Shown here: positions 19,209-58,026 of the stretch, piece after piece
How the letters are laid out: every line of letters starts with the position of its first letter
Position numbering within the stretch: the stretch's first letter is position 1
Source of the DNA: an uncultured Lachnospiraceae bacterium
GTDB taxonomy: Bacteria > Bacillota > Clostridia > Lachnospirales > Lachnospiraceae
Direction: 5' to 3'
Length of the DNA: 59,804 bases
NCBI GenBank assembly: GCA_948946835.1
Contig: CARBNS010000014.1
Location: forward strand, 1 to 59,804
Translations under genes and position numbers: made by a program
The notes under the pieces: model-generated
Seen by the model: the letters and a program-made list of their open reading frames with translations, nothing else
Databases searched by the model: none
Told to the model about the DNA's origin: nothing

Positions 19209-19241
19209 CAAAAAAGGCAGCGTCCCTTACGAAACACTGCC
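19209..19241 (-). terminator. Rho-independent terminator after the FN3 protein gene.
   Basis: On the minus strand: ggcagtgtttcgtaagggacgctgcc hairpin followed by TTTTTTGTCTG. Confidence 0.5.
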
Positions 19242-19259
19242 TCCTTATTATGCGAAAAA

Positions 19260-20426
19260 CTATTTTAAAGATATTACGGAACTGAACTTACCGTCAATGC
19301 GTTTTCCCTTCGCATTCTTTACATAAGCCCTGACTTTGTAATAGTATACCCCGCCTTTTTTCGGCTTGTTTACTGCCCACTTTGTCGTTTTTCCCTTTTT
19401 GATTGTTTTAAGCAGTTTATAGGTTCCGCCTTTTTTCTTACTCCGGTAAATCTGGTATCCTTTTGCATTCGATACTTTTTTCCATGAAATGGTCGACTTC
19501 TTCGCCTCTGTATTTTTTAAAGTAACTTTCGTTACCTTTTTTGGCGACGTTGTGACCTTTACAGCCGAGCTGTATTTCCCATATGACTTAGAGCCGTCCT
19601 CTTTGTTCTTATACGCCCGAAACTTAAACGTATAAGACGTGGCATACTTAAATTTTTTGGAATATGCCGTAACGGAAGGATTGTTGATTTTTTTCAGTCT
19701 CTTATAAGTTTTTGATTTTGCATTGTATTGGTAAATTTCATAGCCATCTGCATCCGCGACTTTCTTCCATTCAAACACAATGCTGTTTGAACCTTTCACA
19801 GGTGACGCTTTCAGTTTCGGCTTTTTGCCAAAAGCCTCCTCCACAGGCGTCTGATCCGACGGATCACCGGCAGGCGGCTGTTCCGCTGGCGGCTCTGCCG
19901 TCTCATTTTTTACGAAAACGCTTTGCGGGCTGTCCAAAAGAAGTGACATTTCATTCAAACCGCTTGCATCTACATATCTAATTACCGGCTCATTACTGCC
20001 TTCGGTTCCGGATGCAAACTCCACTTTTGCCTGATATTCCTGACTGGAAGGGTGTAGGGATAATTTTCCTGTTTTCACAGATTCATTTCCAGAAAAAATA
20101 TCCTGATCTTCCTTTCCTGAAAGAATTAAATCCACAAGGTAGCTTCCGTCCTCCAACTGCCGGATCTGAGAATCTTTAATCCGGCTGTTCAATGATTCCT
20201 CAAACTGAAATGATGGCTGTTCCATCGTTCCTGAAAGAACCGAAACATGGAGTTTTATACGGAGTGACGTAATCTTATCTGTTTTTCCTTCTGGAAGGTT
20301 TACGGTCAGGATAACGTCATTTTTATCTACTGTAAGCATTTGGCTGTCGCTTGCCGCTGCGGCGTCTAAAGGCGCCGCAACAATAAGAAACATTGTCAAT
20401 AACATACATTTAATCCAATTTTTCAT
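19260..20426 (-). CDS. Secreted protein: signal peptide, an N-terminal beta-sandwich domain of about 170 aa (cohesin-like is only a hypothesis), a Pro/Glu-rich linker, then two very basic FN3-like domains.
   Basis: Start ATG at 20426 with GGAGG 5-6 nt upstream (MKNWIKCMLLTMFLIVAAPLDAAAA is a signal peptide). The C-terminus has two copies of the ...W..V..A.GY.IYR... FN3 signature and is lysine-rich. The start overlaps the upstream gene end by 17 nt, implying an operon. Confidence 0.65.
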   Translation of the reverse strand: MKNWIKCMLLTMFLIVAAPLDAAAASDSQMLTVDKNDVILTVNLPEGKTDKITSLRIKLHVSVLSGTMEQPSFQFEESLNSRIKDSQIRQLEDGSYLVDLILSGKEDQDIFSGNESVKTGKLSLHPSSQEYQAKVEFASGTEGSNEPVIRYVDASGLNEMSLLLDSPQSVFVKNETAEPPAEQPPAGDPSDQTPVEEAFGKKPKLKASPVKGSNSIVFEWKKVADADGYEIYQYNAKSKTYKRLKKINNPSVTAYSKKFKYATSYTFKFRAYKNKEDGSKSYGKYSSAVKVTTSPKKVTKVTLKNTEAKKSTISWKKVSNAKGYQIYRSKKKGGTYKLLKTIKKGKTTKWAVNKPKKGGVYYYKVRAYVKNAKGKRIDGKFSSVISLK

Positions 20427-23400
20427 ACTTACCTCCTTGAAGCGTAATATCCGGCAATTCCTGAGGAATCTCAAGCAGTTTTGTATCACTGACAATACGC
20501 TCGCCCTCTAACGTCAGGGCATTGTCTACACGGTATAATTCTCCACGCACGAAGCCTGTGTTCCTTATCGCTTCTAAATTCCACTGATCCGGCCTTACAT
20601 AATATACCCAAGTTCCGTCTGAGGTTTCACCCAGATTTCCTTGTTCCGGAACGTCCGCCAAAATTATTTGTTCCGCAGAGACATTTCCATCTTTTTCCCC
20701 GATTACATTGCCATTTGCATCATAGAGCGCAACTATATTATATGCCGGATTTCCTTTATATGTCCCGGTAAAGATTAATGAGCCTGCCGGAATTACGTCC
20801 GCCGCTTCTTCGCCATATGTAAAGTCTTCCTTCAATACGCCGATTGCCGGCTGGCCTTCTTCCGTTGCCATAAATTCCAAATTATCCCCTGTCGGGCCGC
20901 AGATTTCGATTTCCTGAATGGAAATACTGCCTGCCTGCGACAGCGTCAGCCTTACATATTTCGCATCGTAAGTGCCAATCCAGTTCTTGCGGTCTTCTTC
21001 ATTGACGGAATCAAACCATACCGTCTGCTCTGCATTTGCGGCAAGAGAAACGTTCTCTTTCACTTTTGTCCAATTCTCACCATCTGGGCTGACTTCAACT
21101 GCCGCCGAAGCAACTGCAGAACCCTGATATTTTAATGCCGTCACTTCTTCTGTCTTACGCATATCTATGGTAATTGACGCGGCGCCGCCGCTTACTCCGT
21201 TATAAGTTCCAGCCGCTGTCCTGTCATTGTCTAAAATCCTTGTAATGCTGTTGACCTTTTTCGCTTCTACGCCTGCCGGATCTTCCGCTTCATATCCGCT
21301 GTCCGGATCTTCTCCGTCCGGCTCGATTACGGTATCGTCAGCCGAAGTCATTGTTGTCTCCACTGTCCATTCAGATTTATTTAATACGCCGTCTGTCTGA
21401 ATCTTTACTGAACCAGCCGTTTTTACATTGGAATAATTCAAGTATTTATCCACTGCGCGGACTTCATATTCCATTACCCGATTGTTAATTGATGAAATGG
21501 AGTCTACAAAAACGGTAGAGTCCGCTGTGTCAATCGGCGCAAACCCAATTACCTGAGTGGATTTTTTACCGTTTGAAATCATACTGCGGCTGATTTCATA
21601 GCCAAGCATAAGCTCTGCGCTGCGATCTGTCGCAATCGTGATTTCCGCCTGATTTCCGGCTGCATTTACTGTAGCTGTAGTAACGGCATCCTGATCTTTT
21701 ATTGTCCCTTCCTCATTTGGATGATCCACGCGGTAATCTCTTGCATCGTCATTGACATAATAGAGCGCTTTCGTTTCCGCCTCTCCATATTTTGCCGCAT
21801 ATGCAGTTGTTTTCTCATCTGGCTGCATACCCCAGCGCACAAAGAAAGGAAGAATATTTTTATTTGCCGCCGCGCATGCAAAACGCATAATGTTCTGTTC
21901 TGAGCCTCCGTCTAACGTTAATCCTTCCTGCGGAGCCATTTTTGGATTCCTTGAATAAGTGTCCACTCTTGCAAAGAACAGGTTATTGAACTGATCTTCA
22001 TAGTTGTCGTAAATATGTCTGTCGTCCTTATTATTGTCATATGCAATATGGAGCTGCCAGTACAATGCAAGTTGCGTCGCTACATTCGGAGAGCGTCCGA
22101 TTGTATTTGACGTTACTTTGTCGTAGACATTTTTGTATGTGAATCTTGTCTTTCCGGGAACTTTTGTCAATAGCTGCGCAAAGTAATTGTTTGTGATTTC
22201 CGCAACCGCATATGCGCCCTGATTGATGTCATGCCCAATTTCATGCGCTACGCCCCAGCCAAATCCTGACCAGTCGTTTGGCGCGCTTGCTAATAATGTG
22301 GAACCCCATTCTACGCCAATGTGGTTGCCTGACGCATACATAAACGCTCCGGCAAACATTCTCATATAACGGATATTCAAGTGCTGCGCCGGCCATGCGT
22401 TATTTCCTCTTACGGTTCCCGCGTTATCACTTAATCCTTTATGCTGGTAAAACAGCGTCATTGTTTTTTCCATTGCTTTTAAGGCAAGGTCAAGTTTTAC
22501 CGCTTTATCTTCTGCGTTTTTGATGCCTGCCCAAACCTGAGTTGCAGGTACGGAATACATCATTTCCCTCATCATAATATCTGTTGTATTTAAAATACAG
22601 TTTTGCTGGTCATACGGATAATCTACATTTTTTGTCCCTGTATGTTTTGCCGCATGTCCCGCTTCAATCGTTCCGACATATTGCTCAAGCTCTTTTACAT
22701 AAGCGGAAATCGCCGCCATGCGTTGTTCTTGTGTTTTTCCATACACGCTTAAGACCGGAATATCGCTTCCGCCGCTTATACGGACTGCATACTTATCGTT
22801 TGCATTGTTTCCAGTATATGCTACATATAACTGTCCGCCGCGTTCAAATTCTTTGCTGACAATCTGGGGAACTGTAATTTCATTTCTTCCCACTTTTAAG
22901 CTGACTGCTTTTGAAAGCGTTGCCGCTTCTGCGTGCTGTTGCGTAAACACAAGTTGCAGGCTTGCTTTATCTCCGGTTCTCTTTGTATTATGCCCGACAT
23001 AAACAAGCAGACTTTCACCGGCATATACTGTTTTCCCAACCGGCTGCCATGAATTTAAACCGCCAAATCCAAGATGCCCATCTTTGCTTCCCGTAATCTG
23101 GTTTTCCACTTCATAAGCGCAAGCCAGATTTGAATTTAAAATCTCTCTTGCTGTCTTTAATTCTAAAGTCAGTTCATTGTAAAGCGGATGTTTTTCACCG
23201 CTTGCCTCGTCTACAAGCTCTAAACGGGCTTCTAATGCCTGAATGACGCTTTCCGTTACGTCTGCCCGCAGTGTAGCGTGCATTTCGTCTGTATATAAGC
23301 CCATAATGTCATCTTCCAGCGAATCATAATAATGGAAATGGATTTCACCTACCATCATAGATGCCCTAACACTGTCACGTCCCAGACAAATATTTACTTT

Positions 23401-25641
23401 ATTTGCAGTGATTGCCTGATCAAGCTTAATAATATAGTATGGATTGTTCCTTGAGTCAAGTTTTCTATACAGACGCGCGCCCACGTTCTGTTTTCCTGTA
23501 GACGCTGTATTCCAATACCCAATCCGCGCATATTGAAGCGCTGCTTTTTCGTCCGCGGATGCAAATGTGATAAAATTCATCTTGTAATCTTGATCCAGCG
23601 TCACTGTAAATCCCTTATTGTCTGCCGGATAAGCCACGCCATCGTCCCAGTCTGTTTTTTCCCAATAAGATCCAAAGTTATTATCCACTAAGCCAAGCGC
23701 GCTTTTTTCCGCTGTATCTAACGCGCTGCCTACCATCTTTGCGCCGCCATGCCCGCCATATGACGCTGCTGTGATATGGGCGCTGACTGCCCCTTCTCCA
23801 TTTGAAGTATTCAACAGTTTATAATTCGGAAGCTGTGGCGGGACATTTAACTTCGTAAGCGCGGATGCTGACAGTGACGGGCTGCCCCAGCCAAGGTCAT
23901 TCCAGCCTACGACATAGACGGAATATTCCACTTCGTCCTCTAAGCCTGCAATGACATAATGCGTTGCGTTTATTTTTCCGGTCCCTTCTTTTACCTGTGT
24001 AAATCCTTCGATCACCGGACGGTACTCTGTATCCGCATCTTTTGTCTTTTTATAATAAACCATGTATCCGTTTGCGTCGTCCATGTCTTTCCATGACACT
24101 TCTATCGTCCGGTACCCGCCTGTCGCAGATACATTATCAGGCGCCGCCGGAAGTTTCGTCGGCTTCGGCTCTCCGATTACTTCATTTGACCATGGACTGC
24201 TCCAGTCTCCATTGACAGAACGCGCTTTTATTTTATATTTTTCAAAGTTTAAAAGCGGTTTGTCATTGATAGATGATATTGTATGCGTAATATTTGACAC
24301 GCGCACAATCTGTGTTTCGTGTTCTTCTTGGTTTTTCACAGGACCTGAAATATATACCTCATACCCCGTCACATTTTTCTGCGGGTTCCAAGATACAATC
24401 AATCCTTTATCTACGGATTGTGGAACTCCAAGCGTCGGAATGTCCATCTGCGGCGCCGGTATCCTATTTTCCATATCGTTGACAAAATCAACCTTTGCAA
24501 TATTCACCAAAGGCTCTGTCTTTTTGGTGCCGGTAATTTTTATCGTTACCCGCTTTACTGCAATCTGCCCTCCAAAATCTAACACCAGCGAACCGTCAGC
24601 CTCGACGTCTGCCGAAATAGACGCCGCGCGGTTTGACGCATTTGCAGCAAATAGCGCCCTGTTCTTCTTTTGCTTTGGCTTTGCCGCGGCAGAAAACGGA
24701 ACCGACGTTTCTTTTCCTTCCGCGTCTGTATAAATCACTTCCCCTTCCGTTATTTCATTGGAAATGACGCCCTGTTCATCTGTTACCGGAGCATGAACGA
24801 CAATTCCTTGAATCTCTACCGCTTTTTTTGTATCTTCCACTAATGTAAAGTTGATCCCAACAGGATTTTCCGCTGAAATCTGCGCATTTGCATTTTCAGG
24901 CTTTAATTTCAGCGCGCCTGTTCCATTTAAAAAGTCGTTGACGTTTCCTTCCATAGTCGCGCCCTCAGCCTGTTGGATCGTTTGGACTATGCCAAGCTTC
25001 TCCACTGTGGACTCCCTATGTTCATCTATGCTTTGCACAATATACTGCAAATCTGCCATATCCACTTTCCCATCTTGATTGAGATCAAAGGCAGCTTCCA
25101 TAGAGCCTTCACGGATTTTCGACATCATGCCGTCAATGTCCGTTTGGTCAATTACTCCATCTTGATTGACGTCGCCGACCCGAATCCAGCCCGGAGCCGC
25201 TTCATTGCCCGTCTCAATTCTTGATGGAGAAATTAAAATCTTGGTTTTCCAGCCATTTTGCGCTTTCACATCCTGCGTATAGTCCGCAAATTGGACTGAC
25301 TTCACAGTAACTGTGTAATCCCCTTCTGACACTTCAAACCTTGCCGCTGCAAAGGAAGCCTTAGAACCCTCAAATTTTAAATCCTTTGATTCCACTACTT
25401 CGCTGCCACGTCCGATTTGTACGGTTACGTCACCCTGAAATGGGAATTGAGCGGAAGAACGCACCCCTACTTCCAGAACGCTCTGCGCTTTGCCTGAATC
25501 CACTGACTCAGATGCAGCCTGCGCTTCGCCAAAATCCACTGACCCAGATGCAGTCTGCGCCCCAAACACCGGTTTTGCATTGCCTATCCATGTCTGAAAT
25601 GCCAGACATCCGGCAAGCAGCATTGCCACCATTCTTTTCAT
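20410..25641 (-). CDS. Giant secreted multidomain zinc metallopeptidase (1743 aa): signal peptide, a type-I dockerin, Ig/FN3-like modules, an F5/8 type C (CBM32-like) module, an M60-like (enhancin-like) HEIGH catalytic domain and a C-terminal discoidin-like module.
   Basis: Signal MKRMVAMLLAGCLAFQTWIGNA. Dockerin duplicated Ca-loops GDVNQDGVIDQTD and DLNQDGKVDMAD about 30 aa apart. FN3 signatures TGYEVYISG and NGYMVYYKK. Gluzincin motif GFGWGVAHEIGHDINQ...AEITNNY (the M60 family signature is GWGxxHExGH). Discoidin-like ...SITIDMRKTEEVTALKYQ...WTKV...VWFDS. Confidence 0.65.
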   Translation of the reverse strand: MKRMVAMLLAGCLAFQTWIGNAKPVFGAQTASGSVDFGEAQAASESVDSGKAQSVLEVGVRSSAQFPFQGDVTVQIGRGSEVVESKDLKFEGSKASFAAARFEVSEGDYTVTVKSVQFADYTQDVKAQNGWKTKILISPSRIETGNEAAPGWIRVGDVNQDGVIDQTDIDGMMSKIREGSMEAAFDLNQDGKVDMADLQYIVQSIDEHRESTVEKLGIVQTIQQAEGATMEGNVNDFLNGTGALKLKPENANAQISAENPVGINFTLVEDTKKAVEIQGIVVHAPVTDEQGVISNEITEGEVIYTDAEGKETSVPFSAAAKPKQKKNRALFAANASNRAASISADVEADGSLVLDFGGQIAVKRVTIKITGTKKTEPLVNIAKVDFVNDMENRIPAPQMDIPTLGVPQSVDKGLIVSWNPQKNVTGYEVYISGPVKNQEEHETQIVRVSNITHTISSINDKPLLNFEKYKIKARSVNGDWSSPWSNEVIGEPKPTKLPAAPDNVSATGGYRTIEVSWKDMDDANGYMVYYKKTKDADTEYRPVIEGFTQVKEGTGKINATHYVIAGLEDEVEYSVYVVGWNDLGWGSPSLSASALTKLNVPPQLPNYKLLNTSNGEGAVSAHITAASYGGHGGAKMVGSALDTAEKSALGLVDNNFGSYWEKTDWDDGVAYPADNKGFTVTLDQDYKMNFITFASADEKAALQYARIGYWNTASTGKQNVGARLYRKLDSRNNPYYIIKLDQAITANKVNICLGRDSVRASMMVGEIHFHYYDSLEDDIMGLYTDEMHATLRADVTESVIQALEARLELVDEASGEKHPLYNELTLELKTAREILNSNLACAYEVENQITGSKDGHLGFGGLNSWQPVGKTVYAGESLLVYVGHNTKRTGDKASLQLVFTQQHAEAATLSKAVSLKVGRNEITVPQIVSKEFERGGQLYVAYTGNNANDKYAVRISGGSDIPVLSVYGKTQEQRMAAISAYVKELEQYVGTIEAGHAAKHTGTKNVDYPYDQQNCILNTTDIMMREMMYSVPATQVWAGIKNAEDKAVKLDLALKAMEKTMTLFYQHKGLSDNAGTVRGNNAWPAQHLNIRYMRMFAGAFMYASGNHIGVEWGSTLLASAPNDWSGFGWGVAHEIGHDINQGAYAVAEITNNYFAQLLTKVPGKTRFTYKNVYDKVTSNTIGRSPNVATQLALYWQLHIAYDNNKDDRHIYDNYEDQFNNLFFARVDTYSRNPKMAPQEGLTLDGGSEQNIMRFACAAANKNILPFFVRWGMQPDEKTTAYAAKYGEAETKALYYVNDDARDYRVDHPNEEGTIKDQDAVTTATVNAAGNQAEITIATDRSAELMLGYEISRSMISNGKKSTQVIGFAPIDTADSTVFVDSISSINNRVMEYEVRAVDKYLNYSNVKTAGSVKIQTDGVLNKSEWTVETTMTSADDTVIEPDGEDPDSGYEAEDPAGVEAKKVNSITRILDNDRTAAGTYNGVSGGAASITIDMRKTEEVTALKYQGSAVASAAVEVSPDGENWTKVKENVSLAANAEQTVWFDSVNEEDRKNWIGTYDAKYVRLTLSQAGSISIQEIEICGPTGDNLEFMATEEGQPAIGVLKEDFTYGEEAADVIPAGSLIFTGTYKGNPAYNIVALYDANGNVIGEKDGNVSAEQIILADVPEQGNLGETSDGTWVYYVRPDQWNLEAIRNTGFVRGELYRVDNALTLEGERIVSDTKLLEIPQELPDITLQGGKYEKLD

Positions 25642-25740
25642 GTCTCTTTCCTTTCTCTACAATATATTTCATATTTTGCGTCATATATTTTAACATAATC
25701 TTCCAAAGAAAAAAACATTTTTCTAAAATTGTATTAATTT

Positions 25741-25772
25741 AAAACAAAAAAAGCGGCGTAAAAACGCCGCTT
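25741..25772 (-). terminator. Rho-independent terminator downstream of the tRNA pair.
   Basis: agcggcg-taaaaa-cgccgct hairpin; on the minus strand it is followed by TTTTTTTGTTTT. Confidence 0.6.
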
Positions 25773-25785
25773 TCTAAATATAAAA

Positions 25786-25869
25786 TGCCCGCGACCGGAA
25801 TCGAACCGGTACTGTATCGCTACAACAGGATTTTAAGTCCTGCGCGTCTGCCAGTTCCGCCACGCGGGC
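25786..25869 (-). tRNA. tRNA-Leu (anticodon UAA), class II with a long variable arm.
   Basis: The reverse complement reads GCCCGCGTGGCGGAACTGGCAGACGCGCAGGACTTAAAATCCTG...GGTTCGATTCCGGTCGCGGGCA. There is a 7-bp acceptor stem, the anticodon loop is CTTAAAA, and the T-arm is GGTTCGATTCC. Confidence 0.85.
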
Positions 25870-25901
25870 AAATCAAACAATGATACAATAAAAATCTCAA
25901 A

Positions 25902-25983
25902 TGGGCAGAGGTGGATTCGAACCACCGAAGCAATTTGCAGCAGATTTACAGTCTGTCCCCTTTGGCCACTCGGGAATCTGCCC
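25902..25983 (-). tRNA. tRNA-Tyr (anticodon GUA), class II.
   Basis: The reverse complement reads GGGCAGATTCCCGAGTGGCCAAAGGGGACAGACTGTAAATCTG...GGTTCGAATCCACCTCTGCCCA. The anticodon loop is CTGTAAA, and the acceptor stem GGGCAGA pairs with TCTGCCC. Confidence 0.85.
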
Positions 25984-26132
25984 ATAGAAAAGCATCCAAA
26001 AATGCCCTACCATTTATTTATTATATCACAAACGCTTTTCTTTTTCAAGCGCTTTTTTTTATAAACATGCCACAATCCTTTTTCATCTTCCATTCACGCG
26101 TCTAACCAATGCTGACGGAAAAGACCGTCCGC

Positions 26133-28241
26133 CTATATTCTTTCTAAAATCACCGCTGATTTTTTTTGCATTGTAATCGAAAGTCTGCCTTTTTCCACAC
26201 GATGCCGGATCGGCATCAGGGAATATCCGTTTTCCGTAGTCACAAAAACCTGACACAGCGTTGCCGTTCTTGGAATCCCAGCTTTTACCGTGAAAACCTC
26301 TAAGTCCCTTTCCCTGTCATCATGGTTAATCAGAATCACAAACTGCTGGTCAATCGTAAATCTCGCATAACATAAAAGTTTGTCTTCACTATTTAAGAAT
26401 TGAAAAGAGCCTGTCCGCAATGCCTCGTTATTTTTATGGATACGGATTAATTCCCGATGCAAATCAATTAAATCCTGATTTTCATTCCCCCACGGATATG
26501 TCCTGCGGTTGTCTGGATCCGTAAATCCACATAATCCGGCTTCATCTCCATAATAAAGCGTCGGCGCGCCCGGCCATGTCATCTGCATCACAACCGCTTC
26601 CCGCATCGCGCTGTACTCTATGCCCTCGCTTGCCGCCCCCGCGCCTAAATATTCCACACGTCCCGCCTTATGGTTTGTCCTCGTCAAAAACCGCGAATGG
26701 TCATGGTTTGACAACTGGTTCATGGAACAAAGCAGGGAAGGCGTCAGAAAACTTGCCATATAATGGCGCATCGCGCCTTCAAAATCACTGATTTTGCCAA
26801 TGCGTTCTGGGTGGTATTCGTCGCTATGCTTCTCCATTCCGGTTAAAAACCATGTCAAAGGCTCCATAAAAGCGGAATAGTTCATAATTGTATCCCACTG
26901 ATCGCCCATCAGCCAGTCTTTCGGGTCTCCATAGTGTTCCGCCAAGATTATGGCATTTGGGTTCGCTTCTTTTACCGCTTTCCTAAAGTCCCTCCAGAAC
27001 TGGTGGTTAAATTCTTTACTGTGCCCTAAATCCTCCGCTACGTCCAGCCGCCATCCGTCTACGCAATATGGCTCTGACACCCATTTTTTGCCAATGCGCA
27101 AAATGTCGTCATACAGCTCTTTCGAACCCTCAAAGTTTAACTTCGGAAGCGTGTCATGCCCCCACCATCCTTCATAGTTTTTATTATCCGGCCACGCGCT
27201 GTCTTCCTGATCCTTAAACCCAAAGTAACTGCGGTATGGGCTTTCCTTCGATAAATACGCGCCCACCTCAAAACCTGTCTGGCCCGCATAAATCTTTTCT
27301 CTGTCCATCCAGCAGTTAAACGAGCCGCAATGGTTAAACACGCCGTCCAGAATAATTTTCATGCCGCGTTCATGCGCTTCTTTTACAAACTTTGCAAAAA
27401 ATTTATTGCTTGCTTCTAAGTTTTTCTGATTCGCCACGCGGCAGCAATAACGCGTCGCTTTCCGGTTGTCATGTTCATAGTCCGAAAGAAGCTCTCCCTC
27501 ATCTTCCACAATCACACCAAAATGCGGGTCGATATGGTCATAATCCTGAATATCATATTTATGGTTGGAAGGAGACACAAATATCGGATTGAAATACAGA
27601 ACTTCCACGCCAAGAGACGCAAGGTAATCAAGTTTTTTACGCACGCCTTCTAAATCACCGCCGTAAAACTCCCCCACGCTGAAATTTTCCGGACATTTCT
27701 CCCATTGATTTGGGGGAACCCGTTTGGAAAGCGTCCGAATATAAAAATATTCATTGTCCAGCACGTCATTTGACTCATCGCCATTGTAGAAACGATCCAC
27801 CATAATTTGATACATGACCGCGCCTTTCGCCCAATCCGGCGTAGAAAATCCCGGAACAATCCGGAAAAAATACTGCTGCCTGATTTCCTGCGTCACGCCA
27901 TACCGGTCATACCTGCATCGCAAAAATCCCGACATAATCTCAAAATAATAGGAAAACGCTTCTTCTGCCAGCGCAATCTCTACGGAATAATAATCGTATG
28001 TCTCATCGCTTTTTGTCACCCGCATAGGATAATGTTCCAATGGCGTGCAGACCCAGACCATATCCACATTATTTTTCGCCGCGCGGAACCGAATAGTAAC
28101 CGTCTCATACGCCTTTGGCTCCGGCGGAATCCGGTAATCCTTTGTCCCATCGGAAAATAAAGCTTCCTTCTGTAAAATCGGGCGCATCCTCATAATATAC
28201 TGCTGCGTTCTATTGATCTCATCTACAGATTTATATCTCAT
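26133..28241 (-). CDS. Glycoside hydrolase family 13 alpha-glucanase (neopullulanase / maltogenic amylase / cyclomaltodextrinase-like). It is cytoplasmic, with no signal peptide.
   Basis: GH13 conserved regions: region I VILDGVFNHCG, region II GWRLDVAEDLG (catalytic Asp), region III ILAEHYG (Glu), region IV LSNHDHSRF. An N-terminal N-domain is present. RBS gggaggaagga precedes the ATG. Confidence 0.8.
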   Translation of the reverse strand: MRYKSVDEINRTQQYIMRMRPILQKEALFSDGTKDYRIPPEPKAYETVTIRFRAAKNNVDMVWVCTPLEHYPMRVTKSDETYDYYSVEIALAEEAFSYYFEIMSGFLRCRYDRYGVTQEIRQQYFFRIVPGFSTPDWAKGAVMYQIMVDRFYNGDESNDVLDNEYFYIRTLSKRVPPNQWEKCPENFSVGEFYGGDLEGVRKKLDYLASLGVEVLYFNPIFVSPSNHKYDIQDYDHIDPHFGVIVEDEGELLSDYEHDNRKATRYCCRVANQKNLEASNKFFAKFVKEAHERGMKIILDGVFNHCGSFNCWMDREKIYAGQTGFEVGAYLSKESPYRSYFGFKDQEDSAWPDNKNYEGWWGHDTLPKLNFEGSKELYDDILRIGKKWVSEPYCVDGWRLDVAEDLGHSKEFNHQFWRDFRKAVKEANPNAIILAEHYGDPKDWLMGDQWDTIMNYSAFMEPLTWFLTGMEKHSDEYHPERIGKISDFEGAMRHYMASFLTPSLLCSMNQLSNHDHSRFLTRTNHKAGRVEYLGAGAASEGIEYSAMREAVVMQMTWPGAPTLYYGDEAGLCGFTDPDNRRTYPWGNENQDLIDLHRELIRIHKNNEALRTGSFQFLNSEDKLLCYARFTIDQQFVILINHDDRERDLEVFTVKAGIPRTATLCQVFVTTENGYSLMPIRHRVEKGRLSITMQKKSAVILERI

Positions 28242-28347: not shown

Positions 28348-28501
28348 AGAGAAGGTATTTTTACTATGGGGTGTAGCAAAAATCATATAAGATTGGGGGT
28401 CTTACAGGTATTATAATACCACCACATCACTTAGAAGTGTGCACAAACTTCACAAAAATGCGCCCCTGTTTTTGTGCAAACTACACGATAGTTGTACTTT
28501 C

Positions 28502-30355
28502 TTACTCAAAAAGAGCTTCAAACTCTTCCCGGTTTATCTTTTCCTTCTCTAATAAAAGCCCTGCGCACCGATTCAAAATATCTTCATGTTCTTTTATAAT
28601 CTTCCTCGCTTTTGCATAGCATTCATCTATAATCCGTTTTACCTCCGCATCGATTCTTGTCGCCACGCTTTCGCCATATCCTCTCGCATGGGCCAAATCC
28701 CTGCCGATAAACACCTGATCATCTTCATTGTCATAATTAATTAAACCGACATTTTCCGACATGCCATACTTCGTCACCATCGCTTTTGCAAGCTGCGTCG
28801 CCTGTTTGATGTCCTGCGAAGCCCCCGTGGTAATGTCGTCTAAAATCAATTCTTCCGCAACGCGTCCGCCTAAATCCACGACAATTTCCTGAAGCATACG
28901 CCCTCTCGTATGGAACATCTCGTCATGCTCGGAAACTGGCATCGTATAGCCTGCCGCCCCCGCTCCGGTTGGTATAATGGAAACAGAATCCACCGGTCCC
29001 ACATCTGGGAGCACATGGAATAAAATGGCATGGCCCGCTTCATGGAATGCCGTAATCCTCTTTTCTTTTTCACTGATAATCCGGCTTTTTTTCTCCGCTC
29101 CAATGCCTACTTTTACAAAAGAACTGCGGATATCGCTCTGAATAATGTATGCGCGGTCTTTTTTTGCCGCATGGATTGCCGCTTCGTTTAACAGGTTTTC
29201 CAAATCCGCCCCTGTAAAACCTGCCGTCGTCTGGGCAATCTGATGCAAATCCACGTCATCTCCTAACGGCTTGTTCTGCGCATGGACTTTTAAAATTTCT
29301 TCTCTGCCGCCAATATCCGGCCGCCCCACATGAATTTTACGGTCAAACCGTCCCGGACGCATAATCGCCGGATCTAAAATATCCACCCGGTTCGTCGCCG
29401 CCATAACGATAATCCCATCGTTTACGCCAAAACCGTCCATCTCCACAAGCATCTGGTTTAAAGTCTGCTCCCTTTCGTCATGGCCGCCGCCCATTCCGGT
29501 TCCCCTGCGTCTGGCCACTGCATCGATTTCATCTATAAATACAATACATGGGGAATTTTTCTTCGCTTCTTCAAATAAATCCCTTACGCGCGAAGCGCCG
29601 ACCCCGACAAACATCTCCACAAAATCGGAACCGGAAATGCTAAAAAACGGCACTCCCGCTTCCCCTGCAACTGCTTTCGCTAAAAGCGTTTTCCCTGTTC
29701 CGGGCGGTCCCACCAGAAGAATCCCCTTTGGAATCCTCGCCCCAAGACGGATATATTTCCTTGGAGCCTTTAAAAAATCCGCCAATTCCTCCAGCTCCTC
29801 TTTTTCCTCTCTAAGACCCGCCACGCTTTCGAAATTCATGGTATTCTCACTTGTCGACATCTTCGCGCGGCTTTTGCCAAAGTTCATCATTTTGTTTCCG
29901 CCGCCGCCTGCCGCCGCCTGATTTGTCATAATGACAAACAGAATAAACATTGCGGCAAGCACAATTAAAAGCGGAAGCAAATTCAAAATCCAGCTCTCCG
30001 GCGGCACGTCCGAAACATAATAATTCTTAAATTGATACTTCGCAAGCAATTCCTGTATCTCATTTACATCGGAAACATACAATTCCCGCATTTCATTTCC
30101 TGACAGCCTGATACTTAACGTTCCTGTCGGGATCTCCCTGTTCTGCTCAATCTCTATAAATACGACGGATTCATTTTCCAAAGCAGTCTCTAATGACTTC
30201 ATGCTGTAGGAATGCGCCGCATCCTGCCTTGCATCTAACATCAGCCAGACCAGAATCACAACAAAGACAAGCATGGCATAAAACCCAAGCCCCCTGTAAC
30301 TACGCTTTTTCAACTGGAAACCTCCTTTTTCATTCCTTGCATTCATCAAATTCAA
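28502..30355 (-). CDS. ftsH: ATP-dependent zinc metalloprotease FtsH.
   Basis: Two N-terminal TM helices; Walker [24 protein letters not shown]; the SRH region; the HEAGHAI zinc motif. Confidence 0.95.
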
Positions 30356-30872
30356 TTACGCCGATATACGGCAGGTTCCGGTAGCGCTGCGCATAGTCAA
30401 GCCCGTAGCCCACGACAAACTTATCCGGTATGCAAAATCCCGTATAATCCACTGCCACGTCCGCTACACGCTGTTCCGGTTTATCTAATAATGCGCAGAG
30501 TTTCAAACTCTTTGGATTCTTACTCTTTAAATATCTCAAAAGATAATGCAAAGTCCTGCCGGAATCTATAATGTCTTCCACTACCAGCACATTCAATCCT
30601 TCAATATCCTCATCTAAATCTTTGTTTACTTTTACAACTCCGCTGGATTTCGCATCCATTCCATAACTCGACACTGACATAAAATCTATGGAAACCGGAA
30701 TTGTCAGCCGTTTCGCTAATTCACAGGTGAAAAATATGCTCCCTTTTAAAATACAAACCAGATGCGTCTGCTGCCCTTCAAAATCCTTGCTGATCTCCGC
30801 CGCCATCTGCGCAATTCTCTGATTGACTTCTTCTTCCGATAATAACACATGGATTGTCTCTCTCATGTCCAT
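30330..30872 (-). CDS. hpt: Hypoxanthine(-guanine) phosphoribosyltransferase.
   Basis: PRPP-binding motif [14 protein letters not shown] plus [21 protein letters not shown], nearly identical to B. subtilis HprT. Confidence 0.9.
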
Positions 30873-44812: not shown

Positions 44813-47323
44813 TTATTCCGCTTTGATTTCGCCTGTTCGAATGATAAATTTCACGCTTCCCGCCGTATCTTTTGCTTTTCCGCCAAACGATTCATAGGAG
44901 CCGCCTAAATCCAAAACATTCTGAATCCGTTCCGTAAATTCTTTAACGTCGCCCTGATAAGCGTTTACCAGCTTTTCAATTCCTTCTTCGTCAAACTTCA
45001 CTATTCCGTCTTTTAGTTCAACCGATCCATCTTTTAATTGACGGGTTCCGTCTGAGAACTGGCTTACGCCGTCTTTTAATTTTGAAACGCCATTATTTAA
45101 TTCCGTATTTTTGGAAGCAAGCGTCTGGCTTCCATTGTATAGCTGGTCAATTCCCGACGTCAGTTTCGGCAATTTATCCGACATTCCGTTCACCGCTTCA
45201 TCTAATGCCGACATTCCGGAAACCAGACTATATCCTGACTCTTTATCCTTTTTTTCAATGTTTCCGGCAATCTGCTTTTTCGCAGACTGCGCGCCTTCGA
45301 CTGCCGCCATTGCCGCCGCCTGCCCTGCCGCCGTTTTTGCGCCTTGCTTTACGCTGTCCGCTACAGATGTCCCAACCGTTTCTTTTGCCTGTTCCGCTAC
45401 GCTTACTACCACTTTAGGCGCGGTCTGTTCCGCTACGCTTCCCGCCGTCTGTTCCGCCACACTGCCTGCCACTTGCGCCGCCACACTGCCTGCCACTTGT
45501 TCCGCTACGCTGCCTGCCGCCTGTTCCGCCACGCTTCCCGCCACGTTTGACGCTACGCTTCTGGCTGTCTGATCCGCCACTGCGCCTGCCGCTGTCTGAA
45601 CTGTCCCGATAAATGCCGAAAGCTGTGTTTCCGCCGCCTGTGCAACAGCCGCCGCAATCGACGCGTCCGCCATTGCCTGTTCTACGGTAATCCCGTTCGC
45701 CTGCGCCGCCTGAACAAAGCCTGCCGCCTGAAACGCCGCCTTCAACTGCGCTTTCGTTTCCTCCGAAACCGCGCCTGCAACTGCGGCTGCTGCCTGATCC
45801 TTCGCCTGCGCCGCAATCTCGTCGAGCTTTCCATTTATCCCTGCCATTGCCTGATCCTTCGCCTGCGCCGCAATAACCGGCTTTTGTGTCTGTATTCCCG
45901 CCACTGCCTGATCCTTTGCCTGTTCCGCAATGACCGGCTTTTGCGACTGTATCCCCGCCACTGCCTGATCTTTCGCCTGCGCCGCCGCCGTCTGTTTTAC
46001 AGAGTCGCTTGCAACGGATGCATAAAATGCCTGCGATGCCTGCGATTTGATATTATTGTAACTTTGCGGGTTCGCGTCATCTGCAAACTGCGTTTCCACT
46101 GCCTGCGCCGCCGCTGTTTTTGCCTGCGCCATGGCCGCCTCTTTTTCGCTGTTTCCCATTGGGGCGTTTAGGGCATTATCAAGCGTTTTCATGCCATTGT
46201 TTAACGTATGGATGCTCGCCGTCAAATCAGCTACGCCGCTGACTAACAGGCCTGTTTCTCCTTTCAATGCGCTGATTCCGTTCGCTAACTGTCCGGCGCC
46301 GTCCGTATATGCCGCAACCCCGTTTTTCAAGGAATCAACCCCTCCCGCAAATTCACCCATTTTCTCATCTAATTCGCCAATCCCGTCAGAAAGTTTCTCT
46401 GAACCGTCTCTTAACTGTTCCGTGGCAGACGTTAAATCTTCCATTTTTTCGTCCATTTCCGTCAAATCAAACGTATAATCTCCGGCAAATTCCGAAGGCT
46501 GCGCCACAACCGTCATTGTCATATCTAAAGAAAAATCCTTTACGTCAGCATTTACTTCCACATAATCCGGAATGGATATGTCTTTTTCTAAATCGCCATT
46601 CTTTAAGTTCAAGCTTTCCTTTAAGCCCGGCGCCGCCATGCCAACCACAATCATTGTATCCCCGTTTGATATGACTTTTCCATTTTTTACTTCCACATTT
46701 GTAAAATTATCTTTTAAAAGCATACCCGACACAGCCGCAAACGGCACATAGTAATCTCCGTCTTTCTCATGGTTTGTATAGTCAAAACGTATTTTTACGT
46801 TTCCGCTTTTTCCCGCCAAATCTTTCGGGGAAATTTTTTTCCCGTCCAAATAATAGGATACATTGACGGTAACCGGAGCTTCTTTTGTCGTCACGCCCTG
46901 ATAGTAAATATCGTTTCCATCTGCCTGCCATTCAAGGACGTTGCCTTTTTTCTCAAATGTCTCCCTGCCTTTTACGTTTTCTATGTCTTTTAATTCCGAA
47001 ACGTCCGAAAGCGCATCTAATTTTTCCGGATTTTTCAGCCATTCGCTGACAATCGCCGATTCTGCGTTTCCATTTGCATCAGCAAGGATATAGACGGTTT
47101 CTTCTTTCCCAATAGGCGTTTTTTCACTTTCCTCCTTTCGGGAAAGGAAATCTCCCAGTTCCATTTCCTTTGAAACGCTCTCTGTCTTAGCTTCCCCGCT
47201 TTTTGCGGCATAAACGCCGCATATGCCAGTGCCGCCTGTCAAAAGCGCCACCGTCAATACGCCTGCCGTCATGCGGATTACATATTTGTGTTTGAACCGT
47301 TCTTTTAATTTTTTAAACTTCAT
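44813..47323 (-). CDS. YhgE/Pip-domain membrane protein (phage-infection-protein-like): an N-terminal signal/TM, a large extracellular domain with coiled-coil and Ala/Gln-rich tandem repeats, and a C-terminal YhgE/Pip-like region.
   Basis: Architecture and length (836 aa). The partner gene immediately upstream is an MMPL transporter (a classic YhgE/Pip-MMPL pairing). It carries internal repeats AQAKDQAVAGIQ[ST]QKPVIA x3 and SVAEQ[AVT]AG x6. Confidence 0.55.
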   Translation of the reverse strand: MKFKKLKERFKHKYVIRMTAGVLTVALLTGGTGICGVYAAKSGEAKTESVSKEMELGDFLSRKEESEKTPIGKEETVYILADANGNAESAIVSEWLKNPEKLDALSDVSELKDIENVKGRETFEKKGNVLEWQADGNDIYYQGVTTKEAPVTVNVSYYLDGKKISPKDLAGKSGNVKIRFDYTNHEKDGDYYVPFAAVSGMLLKDNFTNVEVKNGKVISNGDTMIVVGMAAPGLKESLNLKNGDLEKDISIPDYVEVNADVKDFSLDMTMTVVAQPSEFAGDYTFDLTEMDEKMEDLTSATEQLRDGSEKLSDGIGELDEKMGEFAGGVDSLKNGVAAYTDGAGQLANGISALKGETGLLVSGVADLTASIHTLNNGMKTLDNALNAPMGNSEKEAAMAQAKTAAAQAVETQFADDANPQSYNNIKSQASQAFYASVASDSVKQTAAAQAKDQAVAGIQSQKPVIAEQAKDQAVAGIQTQKPVIAAQAKDQAMAGINGKLDEIAAQAKDQAAAAVAGAVSEETKAQLKAAFQAAGFVQAAQANGITVEQAMADASIAAAVAQAAETQLSAFIGTVQTAAGAVADQTARSVASNVAGSVAEQAAGSVAEQVAGSVAAQVAGSVAEQTAGSVAEQTAPKVVVSVAEQAKETVGTSVADSVKQGAKTAAGQAAAMAAVEGAQSAKKQIAGNIEKKDKESGYSLVSGMSALDEAVNGMSDKLPKLTSGIDQLYNGSQTLASKNTELNNGVSKLKDGVSQFSDGTRQLKDGSVELKDGIVKFDEEGIEKLVNAYQGDVKEFTERIQNVLDLGGSYESFGGKAKDTAGSVKFIIRTGEIKAE
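45380..45600 (-). repeat. Tandem 24-nt repeat array (about 7 copies) encoding (GSVAEQxA)n inside the YhgE-like gene.
   Basis: ctgttccgc[ct]ac[ga]ct[gt]cc[tc]gcc[ag] units are visible on the plus strand. The spurious antisense ORFs 45082-45572 derive from it. Confidence 0.75.
45830..45990 (-). repeat. Tandem 60-nt repeat (about 2.5 copies) encoding AQAKDQAVAGIQxQKPVIAx.
   Basis: ccattgcctgatccttcgcctgcgccgcaat[ag]accggcttttg[tc]g[ta]ctgtat[tc]cccg is repeated. Confidence 0.75.
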
Positions 47324-53839: not shown

Positions 53840-56800
53840 CTAATTTTTAAGGGCTCTATCCTCCTTAGAAGTATCTGGCGCAGATACTCGTCTGGAATCC
53901 GCATATGTTAAATCACTAAAAAACGTCAACGTATTTTTGGAAATAATTTTTCCGTCTACAATGGCAAATACATTCCAGTAATCTTCTTGCCCAAAGCCCG
54001 TGGGCACATGAAATGTACGCACCGGATCATTTCCATGATAAACTTTAATCTGCGCTCCAGATGTCGAAAGCGTACCGCTTCCATCATAATGATAAACGTA
54101 ATAATAGTATGGGGCATCGGTATTTACATTCAATGTAATTGTTTCGGGTCCATAACCTGTTATATCATCCAGATCAAGATTGCAGACTTCTAAATCCGAC
54201 TCATAATCATATTCCCACATATTTTCATAATATACATGAAAATCCTCTCCATCTGAAAATCTTCCAACGACATGAGAATCAAGATCACTTGGATTTTCAC
54301 CCCATGTTAAAACTATCCGGTATGTATCGTCTGCCATTACAGGTGACATGGTTCCATTCTGTTCCGGATTATCCGTATCTTCCCCCGGCCATACAATAAT
54401 ATTAAAGCTCGTTGCCAAATACTCCTCTTTACTTGCCGTAATCGTATAATTCCCACAGGGAATCCCGAATATAACGCCAAATGCTTTTTTCGCGCCAAAC
54501 CGGAACTCCCCATCAGAATCCGTTTTTAATTCCTTAATAATTTCACCTTCTGTATTATTCCAGCCAGAGCGAAGCTGAAGATTAACATCTTCAATAGGCC
54601 TTCCTGTAACTGCATTTGTAATAATTCCCCTAAATCCCCCTTTTCCTTCTCCCGAAATCAATTCAATTTCCTGCATATATGTCATTTCGCCATCTTCTAT
54701 TCTTTCGTAAGCAGAAAAAGGAAGATATCCGTCCTTTGTTATTTCTATCAAAAATGTCCCACTTGGAAGGGAACATGAGAAATTACCTAATTCATCTGTT
54801 TCCATTGCAGTGACTCCCATATCGTCTTTGGAAATTTTAACGCTTACCCCCTTGATATTGTTTCCAGTTTCAGAATCTTTAATATGACCATACAATTCTC
54901 CATTCTCTGATAACGGAGACAATATGACTGTCTGCACATTGCCTTTCGTCACAAACGATTTGCTTACACGCTTCCCATCTATATTTGCATTAGCTATATA
55001 AATCCCGTCATACAGATATTCCACGTATGTCGAATTGCCTGCCTTTTCATATGCCGTATTGCCATCTTCCCTTTTAATTGTCACAGGGATGCCTGTAAGA
55101 GTCTCGTCCTTGTCATTTAAGACTTGAATAGTTGTTTTGTAAAATTTATTTTTACAAGGGCCAAACCCATATTTTTTCTCTCCTCTGTATACACTGTCTC
55201 TGCTATTAGAAAGTGACCAAAAACATATTCCGGGGTATTCAGGAAGGAAATTGACATATCCTTCAAGTTCAAATAATTTAATATTAAATATATCTCCCTT
55301 TAAAGCATCATCGCAAATTGCAAACGTCATTTTTAAGTTTAAATCTGCAAACCATTTTATCTCACCAGAAACACACAAATCACACGCATGTTTGGACTCT
55401 GCATGATTTAACACATCATCACTGCCCATTTCTACTTCAGCAGTCATTTTTACGCCAGAATGGCCGCTAAATTCCACTTTAACTACATTTTTACAGAACT
55501 GGATCGCCGTAGAAAGTTTTGGACCAATCTTTATTTCTGCCTTACCCTCCGCCATTAAACTCACTGTTTGTGTTTTTTCTTTGATGTCTTCTCTTCCAGA
55601 ATAGGAATTGTATTGAAAACCCGACTTCTGTGAATAAGTATAATCCAATGATATACTCCCGCTAGCTTCCCATTCTATTGGAATTTTAGGATTTATCGAC
55701 GCTTCAAGCCCCGGCACCGGCGTTGGAACTGAAACCCTTGGCAATGGAATCTCTGTTTTGTCTGCCCTGCGCGCATTATTATCATTTCCATCATTATCTT
55801 TAGACACCTCCCCCTTTATGCCAAGTTTTCCCTCAAGCAATGTTGTAATGTTACATTCAAAATAATCTTTCGCAAAAAGTTTGGCATCATAAGATATTTG
55901 TATGCTGAATTGTACAGATCCACTAAGCGTCCCAGAAATTTTTAAAGTGTCTTCTATTAGCTCATGAGAAAAATCTCCGCCAATCGTCGGACTGGAAAAG
56001 TTGGTTTCGACGTCTATAATATCAATCCTTGGCTGAATGCCACTGTCCCCAGATTTCATATCTGTTTTCAAAACATCATAAAAATCAGTTAGCATTACAT
56101 CTGATGCGGTTGTAAATGTGATGAACCCATCCGAATTATTAATAACCTCCTTAATCTTAAACAGATACGCAGTGCCAGTAACATAAACCGGATCGCCGGA
56201 TCGCAGTCCCCTTACATCACTGTCAGGGTTATAAAACGTATATGTATGATCTAACATGTTGCTTTCAAATTCATCTTCAATGAAAATATCTTCTACAACT
56301 AACCTATTTGTCATGTTGCCAGAATTAATTATCTTCACATTTTCATTAAATACGCCAAAATTGTTTTCTGTGCTTTCATCAAAATTCACAACCTTTTCTT
56401 CCGGAAAATCATATACTGTCTTTTCTTCAAACCGGGCATATTTCGCAGAATAATCGATACATAAAAATGATTCACACAGTTTTTTTTCTATACCTTCCCC
56501 ATCTAATTCCACGAGCCTTGCGCGAATCAGATAGTAATCGGTTAAAGCAGTTTCCACAGGTATAGAAACACAAATCATCTCTCCATAATCTGGCGTCTGC
56601 GTGGCAACTCTTGTAATTGGTTCTTTCTGGAGACAGGCATTTACGGCTTCTTGTTCCCAGCTGCCATCTATACCGATTGTATCCTCATAAAACTCTACAA
56701 CCAATGCGCAGGCTGAATTTGTATTGATCGTTGCCTGTAGGGTATTTCCATTCATCTCTACACCTGAAATGGAGTAAATCGTTTCTTCCTTATTTGTCGC

Positions 56801-57910: not shown

Positions 57911-58026
57911 AATGTACCCCTTTCTGTTCTGCCAACGCTTGTAATCATTATCCCTTCTTTTACACAGGAGATTAAATAAAGAATCTGATGCTTTTTCCAA
58001 TGCCAATCGCATAATATGCTCTCCTT

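Follow-up and report, generated by a model that had tools for sequence, protein, structure and literature searches.

A dockerin-bearing M60-like peptidase and its cohesin-fold neighbour: a conserved gene pair and candidate surface tether in Lachnospiraceae

Here, we describe a pair of adjacent genes in a 59,804-nucleotide stretch of DNA from an uncultured Lachnospiraceae bacterium (contig CARBNS010000014.1; hereafter, the window) that probably forms a two-gene cohesin–dockerin tether for displaying a mucinase on the cell surface. The upstream gene encodes a secreted M60-like peptidase with a type-I-like dockerin near its N terminus, and the downstream gene encodes a secreted partner in which a domain with the predicted fold of a cohesin is joined to two Lys-rich fibronectin type III (FN3) modules. 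Three lines of evidence, i.e., the fold of the partner domain, the synteny of the two genes and the logic of the partner's anchors, support this model. An initial annotation, made from the letters of the sequence alone, had proposed a self-contained cohesin–dockerin-style tethering pair at this locus. The fold, the occurrence of the two genes together at 79 of 79 loci and the swapping of the partner's anchor all support that proposal, with the binding of dockerin to cohesin as the step that we infer.

The peptidase, its dockerin and the partner protein

The two genes and the parts of their products lie as follows, with residues numbered in the protein concerned.

20410–25641, minus strand: peptidase gene, 1743 residues, from the open reading frame (ORF)
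25561–25641, minus strand: Sec-type signal peptide of the peptidase, residues 1–27, MKRMVAMLLAGCLAFQTWIGNAKPVFG followed by A, read from the sequence with a predicted cleavage site
25018–25194, minus strand: type-I-like dockerin, residues 150–208 (Pfam PF00404)
23854–24402, minus strand: two FN3 modules of the peptidase, residues 414–596 (Pfam fn3, two stretches)
21580–23340, minus strand: ZmpB-like catalytic unit, residues 768–1354 (phmmer alignment to ZmpB and Pfam PF13402)
21829–22581, minus strand: Pfam core of Peptidase_M60, residues 1021–1271
22198–22245, minus strand: zinc site, with HEIGH at residues 1133–1137 (22231–22245) and Glu1148 in AEITNN (22198–22200)
20929–21234, minus strand: F5_F8_type_C (PF00754, CBM32-like) module, residues 1470–1571, above the gathering score
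20432–20438, minus strand: Shine–Dalgarno sequence AAGGAGG of the partner gene, within the last codons of the peptidase gene
19260–20426, minus strand: partner gene, 388 residues from the ATG at 20426, from the ORF
19893–20345, minus strand: cohesin-fold domain of the partner, residues 28–178, isoelectric point (pI) 4.6
19827–19892, minus strand: acidic Pro/Glu-rich linker of the partner, residues 179–200, by composition and disordered in the structural model
19263–19826, minus strand: two Lys-rich FN3 modules of the partner, residues 201–388 (Pfam fn3/GH85_C), a putative cell-wall-binding anchor

The peptidase is a secreted, acidic protein (pI 4.8), and its Pfam domains were called at the curated gathering scores. 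Peptidase_M60 (PF13402) matches with 39–42 bits against a cutoff of 25.8. The motif GFGWGVAHEIGH carries HEIGH, the glutamate at residue 1148 reads directly as the third ligand of a gluzincin, and HEIGH...AEITNN aligns with GWGVAHELGH...VEVTNN of ZmpB. The closest solved relatives found by phmmer in the PDB are the Clostridium perfringens peptidases ZmpB (5kdj, E = 8.7e-26; 7jfs), ZmpC (6xsz, 1e-15) and ZmpA (6xsx, 2.4e-9); the alignment to ZmpB (5kdj/7jfs) spans residues 768–986 and 1094–1354, and every orthologue whose contig includes the catalytic region has HExGH. These matches confirm the M60-like GWGxxHEIGH gluzincin core of the initial annotation, and its FN3 modules are likewise recovered by Pfam, while of the F5/8 type C modules that it had listed in the plural only one passes. 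By its homology to ZmpA, ZmpB and ZmpC and its CBM32-like module, the enzyme would be expected to cleave mucin-type glycoproteins in an O-glycan-dependent manner. Nine sub-segments scanned singly with Pfam yielded nothing further of significance: residues 205–410, 600–780, 1290–1440 and 1580–1743 have no Pfam match, and the N-terminal beta domain gives only weak PEGA/CarboxypepD_reg-like hints. Neither the peptidase nor the partner contains an LPXT[GAN] motif or a Pfam SLH match. Lipoprotein anchoring of the peptidase via the sequence LLAGC was considered and rejected: many orthologues have S, L or V in place of the cysteine, and the h-region is too short for a lipobox, with four residues between the basic n-region and the would-be lipobox.

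The dockerin is recognized by Dockerin_1 over residues 156–202 (29.3 bits against a cutoff of 22.9; profile positions 2–53 of 57). Its two calcium loops, DVNQDGVIDQTD (residues 157–168) and DLNQDGKVDMAD (residues 186–197), can both be read in the sequence and have the pattern of type I dockerins, i.e., tandem repeats of ~22 residues in which a 12-residue EF-hand-like loop, D-x-[DN]-x-[DN]-G-x5-D, is followed by a helix; the type-I dockerin with two calcium loops named in the initial annotation is, thus, borne out. The dockerin is kept in all 45 aligned full-length orthologues, and the Asp and Asn residues of the loops are invariant in 33 orthologues. The second repeat with its helix (D-L-N-x-D-G-x-x-D-x-x-D-L-Q-x-x-V-Q) is invariant or nearly so, whereas the helix of the first repeat varies, which suggests that the dockerin has a single dominant binding face. 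A profile of the 33 orthologous dockerins retrieves 334 proteins, and among the matches listed 120 of 120 carry PF00404. When the dockerin profile was run against a set of 5.8 billion proteins for other cargo, only short generic PF00404 fragments were returned, a result that is silent on exclusivity.

The partner has the architecture that had been described for it, namely a Sec signal peptide, a beta-rich N-terminal domain and, after a Pro-rich linker that proves to be acidic, two Lys-rich FN3 modules. The ORF as listed starts at a TTG at 20495, upstream of the real signal peptide, and we take the ATG at 20426 as the start. The N-terminal domain had been called cohesin-like from its composition, and structure prediction supports this call. 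An AlphaFold2 (AF2) model of the whole partner has a mean per-residue confidence (pLDDT) of 86.6, with values <50 at residues 177–196 in the linker, and a model of the N-terminal domain is of high confidence (pLDDT 92; predicted TM-score, pTM, 0.86). In a Foldseek search with this domain, Coh-OlpC, a cohesin-like module of C. perfringens and other cohesins come out on top (E = 3.3e-4, probability 1.0), and the C. perfringens cohesins 2vo8, 2w1n and 2jh2 are among the matches. Searches of the domain with Pfam, NCBIfam and phmmer against the PDB linked it to no known family, cohesins included. As the model has it, the domain is a divergent cohesin-fold module that forms a sequence family of its own, and because it has no membership in a cohesin sequence profile, we label it cohesin-fold or cohesin-like. 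The family is small: clustering at 50% identity leaves 117 representatives in a set of 1.84 billion proteins. Throughout the family the domain lies near the N terminus, and in complete proteins it directly follows the signal peptide; the two exceptions, P0164 and P0203, are Ig/PKD repeat proteins that were matched spuriously. By strand order, the most conserved residues of the domain, ITSLR, F-x-F and Y-x-V-D-x-I-L-S-G-K, belong to strands 3, 4 and 6 in the model. With M60 and dockerin matches present, and an N-terminal domain whose fold is not that of a non-cohesin protein, the outcomes named at the outset as speaking against the pairing did not occur.

Conservation of the gene pair and exchange of its anchors

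A scan of one genome per species gave 54 loci, and a metagenome scan gave 34 more, mostly redundant. The 54 loci come nearly all from Lachnospiraceae-type metagenome-assembled genomes (MAGs) or isolates, with labels including Roseburia, Eubacterium, Lachnoclostridium and Blautia, and one carrier is the cultured strain Hominisplanchenecus murintestinalis DSM 111139 (L003). Full-length homologues of the partner number ~100, and every one of them comes from a MAG or an isolate of the Lachnospiraceae type. At each of the 79 loci with enough upstream DNA, an ORF for a dockerin-bearing M60 protein lies directly upstream of the gene for the cohesin-like protein and on the same strand; the 14 loci without an upstream dockerin ORF are all cut by a contig end. 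Where intact, the upstream ORF encodes ~1750 residues with HExGH and ends between 16 nucleotides inside the partner gene and ~270 nucleotides before it. The window and loci L001–L055 (56 sources) each contain exactly one dockerin ORF and one cohesin-like ORF. The peptidase and partner genes are common to 47 of 47 non-redundant loci, and no other gene is shared by all: the alpha-amylase, MCP and DUF4230 genes that flank the pair in the window are found again at only 3, 2 and 0 of 46 loci, respectively. By this comparison, the two genes are a conserved, autonomous module that is strictly syntenic across Lachnospiraceae.

The long peptidase gene is sometimes broken. Short M60 matches on long contigs proved to be frameshift-fragmented copies that still have the dockerin and the cohesin-like neighbour. 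In L093 (GCA_964261755.1, 5001–9310) and L094 (4847–9821), the gene is split into four to five consecutive pieces on the same strand (PEGA-like, dockerin, fn3 plus M60, and F5/8), which are frameshift pseudogenes or assembly errors, and database entries of ~800 residues named M60 family metallopeptidase are such fragments. Searching with the catalytic region for dockerin-less outgroups brought up no sister group that truly lacks the dockerin. P0452 (722 residues, 35% identity), an M60-like homologue at a greater distance, has SLH (PF00395) modules on the same chain; this arrangement looks like attachment to the wall by the enzyme itself, with no separate anchor protein, and would be a third solution to the same problem.

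Several observations on the C-terminal part of the partner bear on its function. First, the FN3 pair contains 25.5% Lys and has a pI of 10.3 and a net charge of +45, and the region is basic in 51 of 51 orthologues examined (pI 9.96–10.87). Second, these modules are 37–46% identical to modules fused to secreted peptidoglycan hydrolases of the M15_4, NlpC/P60 and CHAP families, and the hydrolase-fused modules are equally basic (pI ~10, up to 27% Lys). Third, in the distant pairs L093, L094, L095 and L096, the dockerin-M60 gene and the gene for a signal peptide with a cohesin-like domain are kept (local hidden Markov models: dockerin, E = 6e-22 to 3e-16; cohesin-like domain, E = 3e-17 to 8e-8) and the anchor is changed. 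In these four partners, the Lys-rich FN3 pair is replaced by xTGD, a transmembrane (TM) helix and an R/K tail, in part preceded by FIVAR-like repeats. The partner of L095 consists of the cohesin-like domain, three FIVAR-like helical repeats, ...VKTGD, a TM helix and RKKRNIHRR; that of L096 has the cohesin-like domain, a Pro/Glu linker, ...AATGD, a TM helix and RRKRR; and those of L093 and L094 are similar. Many remote family members from an exhaustive search (P0161–P0220) also close with a TM helix followed by a basic tail, often after [KSTP]TGD; this reads as a sortase-like sorting signal or, at a minimum, as a device that holds the C terminus in the membrane. FIVAR-like three-helix repeats occupy the space between the cohesin-like domain and the xTGD/TM anchor at 6533–8017 of L095 and 9839–10804 of L094; in C. 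perfringens glycosidases, too, cohesins occur together with FIVAR modules.

At locus L033, a plus-strand ORF adjoining the M60/partner pair encodes a secreted multidomain protein of 2225 residues that ends in the same Lys-rich FN3 pair and, judged by eye, contains several concanavalin/LamG-like repeats. Because the same module occurs on peptidoglycan hydrolases and on this L033 enzyme, the simplest reading is that the Lys-rich FN3 pair is a general module for wall retention. Cellulosomal anchoring scaffoldins carry SLH modules in OlpA, OlpB and OlpC of C. thermocellum and a sortase signal in ScaE of Ruminococcus flavefaciens. The partner family repeats this pattern of a constant socket with interchangeable envelope anchors, which argues that its job is anchoring; an inhibitor, or an accessory protein that binds substrate, would fit this pattern poorly. 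The suggestion in the initial annotation that the FN3 domains could bind the cell wall gains support from the M15 and NlpC/P60 homologues and from the anchor swapping.

The charge of the FN3 pair also invites a different reading, which we consider distinctly improbable, i.e., that cohesin–dockerin pairing is real but that the partner is a substrate-targeting adaptor or adhesin whose FN3 polycation binds host mucin (with sialylated or sulfated glycans as the polyanions), capsule or other cells. A net charge of this size would bind any polyanion, and the partner in the window has no covalent anchor in the form of LPXTG or a TM helix. However, the basic FN3 modules recur on hydrolases whose target is the cell wall, and where the FN3 pair would be, the distant relatives have an unambiguous envelope anchor.

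Altogether, we favour a model in which the partner tethers the peptidase to the cell. The peptidase would be exported by the Sec pathway with its FN3 and CBM32-like modules, with a dockerin near its N terminus and with no wall anchor of its own. The partner would offer a sequence-cryptic cohesin, while its basic FN3 pair would keep it attached, by non-covalent contacts, to the anionic wall of the Gram-positive cell. Once exported and loaded with Ca2+, the dockerin would plug into the partner's cohesin in a dedicated 1:1 manner, probably using mainly the conserved second helix (DLQxxVQ) and, hence, a single binding mode. Held at the surface by a flexible linker, the enzyme would then cleave O-glycosylated mucin-like substrates and keep the products near the cell.

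Several points weigh against this model. The cohesin call is made at the level of the fold only, with Foldseek TM-scores of ~0.4–0.56 and identities of 3–12%, and the Foldseek list has DsbD-N, YcnI and pilin folds scattered among the cohesins. Pfam Cohesin (PF00963), a check suggested in the initial annotation, matches neither the partner nor 10 members of its family, and a profile of 43 sequences run against the PDB at E ≤ 10 found no cohesin. Covariation was examined by normalised mutual information (MI) and (partial) mirror-tree analysis in 47 non-redundant pairs, where six modules of the M60 protein and the FN3 pair of the partner served as controls, and dockerin and cohesin did not covary above the phylogenetic background (partial r = −0.02; MI distribution as in the controls). 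The one suggestive pair, Q54->H in the dockerin with F84->I/T in the cohesin, is essentially a single-clade event. A lack of covariation is not surprising if both putative interfaces are near-invariant, yet it gives no support either. Wall binding by the FN3 pair is suggested by domain co-occurrence and charge, and we know of no characterised precedent for wall binding by Lys-rich FN3 modules. Finally, the exclusivity of the dockerin/cohesin pair rests on the 60-kb window and the loci with ±10 kb around them.

The same points lend some weight to an explanation that we consider unlikely, in which the dockerin binds another cohesin encoded elsewhere or is a Ca2+-stabilised structural EF-hand, while the partner is a surface accessory, such as a substrate-binding, glycan-binding or spacing protein, with a sandwich that merely resembles a cohesin. 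The partner has no sequence-level link to cohesins, its Foldseek TM-scores are moderate (~0.5) in a list that includes other Ig-like or jelly-roll folds, covariation gives no signal, and the search for other cohesins and dockerins covers the 60-kb window. Moreover, many non-cellulosomal dockerins in the databases have no known partner. However, dockerin and cohesin-like domain co-occur at all 79 loci, even where the anchor type and the linkers have changed; the 60-kb window contains no other cohesin or dockerin; and an accessory role leaves the near-invariant second helix of the dockerin unexplained.

The close coupling of the two genes has to be considered as well. The ATG of the partner at 20426 precedes the stop codon of the peptidase gene, and the two genes overlap by 17 nucleotides (20410–20426), as the initial annotation had stated. 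Because of this overlap, the two genes may be translationally coupled. Enzyme/inhibitor pairs typically show such tight coupling and a 1:1 stoichiometry, and the partner could, therefore, be a secreted inhibitor, chaperone or maturation factor (immunity-like or a prodomain acting in trans) that binds the enzyme away from the dockerin. We regard this as very improbable indeed: an inhibitor would have no reason to carry swappable envelope anchors and long stalks, the domain is cohesin-like and unlike any known fold of a metalloprotease inhibitor, and the enzyme keeps a conserved dockerin, for which cohesin binding is the only known role. For the tether, a more specific proposal, which we hold to be evenly balanced, is that the cryptic cohesin family is only ever the socket of a dedicated anchor that lies directly downstream of, and is co-inherited with, one dockerin-M60 mucinase, in an operon of one enzyme and one anchor with interchangeable anchors.

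Transcription unit and surroundings

The elements bordering the gene pair are as follows.

~19210–19246, minus strand: intrinsic terminator of the operon, a 16-bp hairpin and U-run directly after the stop codon of the partner gene
25775–25748, minus strand: strong terminator of the tRNA unit with a 12-bp stem, at the upstream edge of the operon
25785–25870, minus strand: tRNA-Leu(TAA)
25901–25984, minus strand: tRNA-Tyr(GTA)

The terminator after the partner gene folds as RNA with a ΔG of −26.3 kcal/mol (z = −6.1), and none of 200 shuffled sequences is as stable. The initial annotation had the block followed by a terminator and the tRNA-Tyr/Leu pair, which places these elements on the wrong side: in the direction of transcription, the tRNA genes and their terminator lie upstream, and the terminator at 25775–25748 ends the tRNA unit, while the operon has its own at ~19210–19246. 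Because the terminator of the tRNA unit lies upstream of the peptidase gene, the operon is isolated from upstream transcription, and with terminators on both sides the peptidase and partner genes form a bicistronic unit. In the NCBI database, members of the clusters at ≥90% identity, MCI9427668.1 (peptidase) and MCI9427667.1 (partner), are both named hypothetical protein, with Eubacterium sp. as the source.

The tRNA genes form a small unit of their own (25785–26048, minus strand) between an alpha-amylase-family gene (26133–28241) and the M60 operon, with a promoter-like site near consensus, TTGAAA-17-TATAAT with TG, at 26048–26020. Within the M60 gene, antisense ORFs of 83–223 residues (22584–25742, plus strand) are shadow ORFs and not genes; their counterparts cluster across loci because the sense M60 gene is conserved. 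Further upstream of the operon, ~28500–36000 (L001 1–7140) is a conserved block of sporulation and housekeeping genes of Firmicutes (S4-domain, yabP, yabQ, divIC, spoIIE, tilS, hpt, ftsH); spoIIID lies downstream of the operon, and the host is a spore-former. Two other large surface-type genes have neither cohesin nor dockerin, i.e., those for a 1280-residue BspA-type leucine-rich repeat protein with Big_2 (27–3869, plus strand) and for a 1390-residue protein with Big_2, Listeria-Bacteroides repeats and CarboxypepD_reg (53840–58012, minus strand). A 544-residue protein (58027–59661, minus strand) matches MVP_shoulder (PF11978, 2.5e-21), and an 836-residue ORF beside an MMPL transporter gene (44813–47323, minus strand) has no Pfam match at E ≤ 1e-5.

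Relation to known cohesin–dockerin systems

Anchors of the OlpA/OlpC type combine one type-I cohesin with a non-covalent wall anchor and hold single enzymes on the cell. OlpA and OlpC of Clostridium (Acetivibrio) thermocellum (PDB 3ul4, 4dh2), as single-cohesin anchors, are the closest functional analogues of the partner. The two systems differ in that the anchor is a Lys-rich FN3 pair here and SLH there, the cohesin here is Pfam-negative, the cargo is an M60-like glycopeptidase rather than a plant-cell-wall enzyme, the host is a gut Lachnospiraceae bacterium, and anchor and cargo here are a strictly conserved and probably translationally coupled gene pair. The partner relatives with xTGD, a TM helix and a basic tail mimic the architecture of R. 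flavefaciens ScaE (PDB 2zf9), a sortase-anchored wall anchor with a single type-III cohesin. By contrast, ScaE belongs to Oscillospiraceae with plant-fibre cargo, and it binds the dockerins of a scaffoldin or CttA, not of one enzyme encoded next door.

C. perfringens reportedly forms cohesin(X82)–dockerin toxin complexes, said to have been described by Adams et al. in 2008. This species likewise uses single non-cellulosomal cohesins to pair enzymes that degrade host glycans, and the catalytic unit described here is homologous to its ZmpB, ZmpC and ZmpA (E = 8.7e-26 to 2.4e-9). There, cohesins and dockerins are found on glycoside hydrolases and pair enzyme with enzyme (PMC12997984); the literature examined does not present the Zmp peptidases of C. 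perfringens as cargo that a dedicated anchor holds by a dockerin.

In the Limousia mucinolysome (Akresi et al. 2026, PMC12997984), published in 2025–2026, gut Clostridia assemble enzymes that degrade mucin by means of cohesins and dockerins. It includes dockerin-bearing peptidases and a cell-wall-anchored scaffoldin, and the main text has no mention of M60. Limousia is Anaeromassilibacillus or Acutalibacteraceae, depending on the classification, and has Pfam-detectable scaffoldins with up to 12 cohesins, many glycoside hydrolases and a sortase-anchored Sca5 (PMC12997984). The system described here, in contrast, consists of one cryptic cohesin and one cargo and lacks a scaffoldin. We found no multi-cohesin scaffoldin recruiting several enzymes, with one cohesin-like domain per partner and one dockerin ORF per locus, and we therefore class the pair as a single-cohesin anchor and not as a cellulosome or mucinolysome. 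Divergent ruminococcal cohesins that are invisible to hidden Markov models are recognisable by predicted structure and have been termed AF2-only (PMC13463774).

Contrary to what the initial annotation had implied, dockerin-bearing peptidases have precedents: the Limousia mucinolysome (PMC12997984) and the survey of Nakjang et al. 2012 (PMC3267712) came earlier. That survey of M60-like/PF13402 architectures, including CBM32, lists Dockerin_1 in 2 of 415 M60-like proteins; this is a table entry only, and no cohesin partner, operon or anchoring mechanism is proposed there. Our literature search found no paper that joins Peptidase_M60 with a dockerin, and for a mucinase with a dockerin it returned the Nakjang paper and a C. 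perfringens review only; a 2026 Enterococcus M60 paper mentions neither dockerin nor cohesin.

The gene pair is, thus, clearly a testable extension of the theme of single-cohesin anchors rather than a new principle. It is set apart by a cryptic cohesin family, by an operon in which enzyme and anchor are obligately paired 1:1, by anchors that can be swapped and by its presence in a dominant family of gut commensals, and the cultured carrier H. murintestinalis DSM 111139 makes the hypothesis directly testable. If the pairing is real, cohesins would be under-counted by sequence profiles, the pair would be a compact, orthogonal and naturally 1:1 cohesin–dockerin tool for the engineering of protein display, and Lys-rich FN3 repeats would be a candidate wall-targeting module that peptidoglycan hydrolases also use. 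Under the more specific proposal of one enzyme and one anchor, these repeats would become a new module for wall retention in Gram-positive bacteria, and the system would be the first of the cohesin–dockerin kind assigned to gut Lachnospiraceae and the first that serves a glycopeptidase alone. In mucin, M60-like O-glycopeptidases cleave the protein backbone, and whether such an enzyme is released or stays on the cell influences how gut commensals wear down the mucus barrier and use it as food. With a real pairing, cohesin–dockerin assembly would reach beyond plant-fibre degraders and Limousia into Lachnospiraceae, a dominant family of the mouse and human gut.

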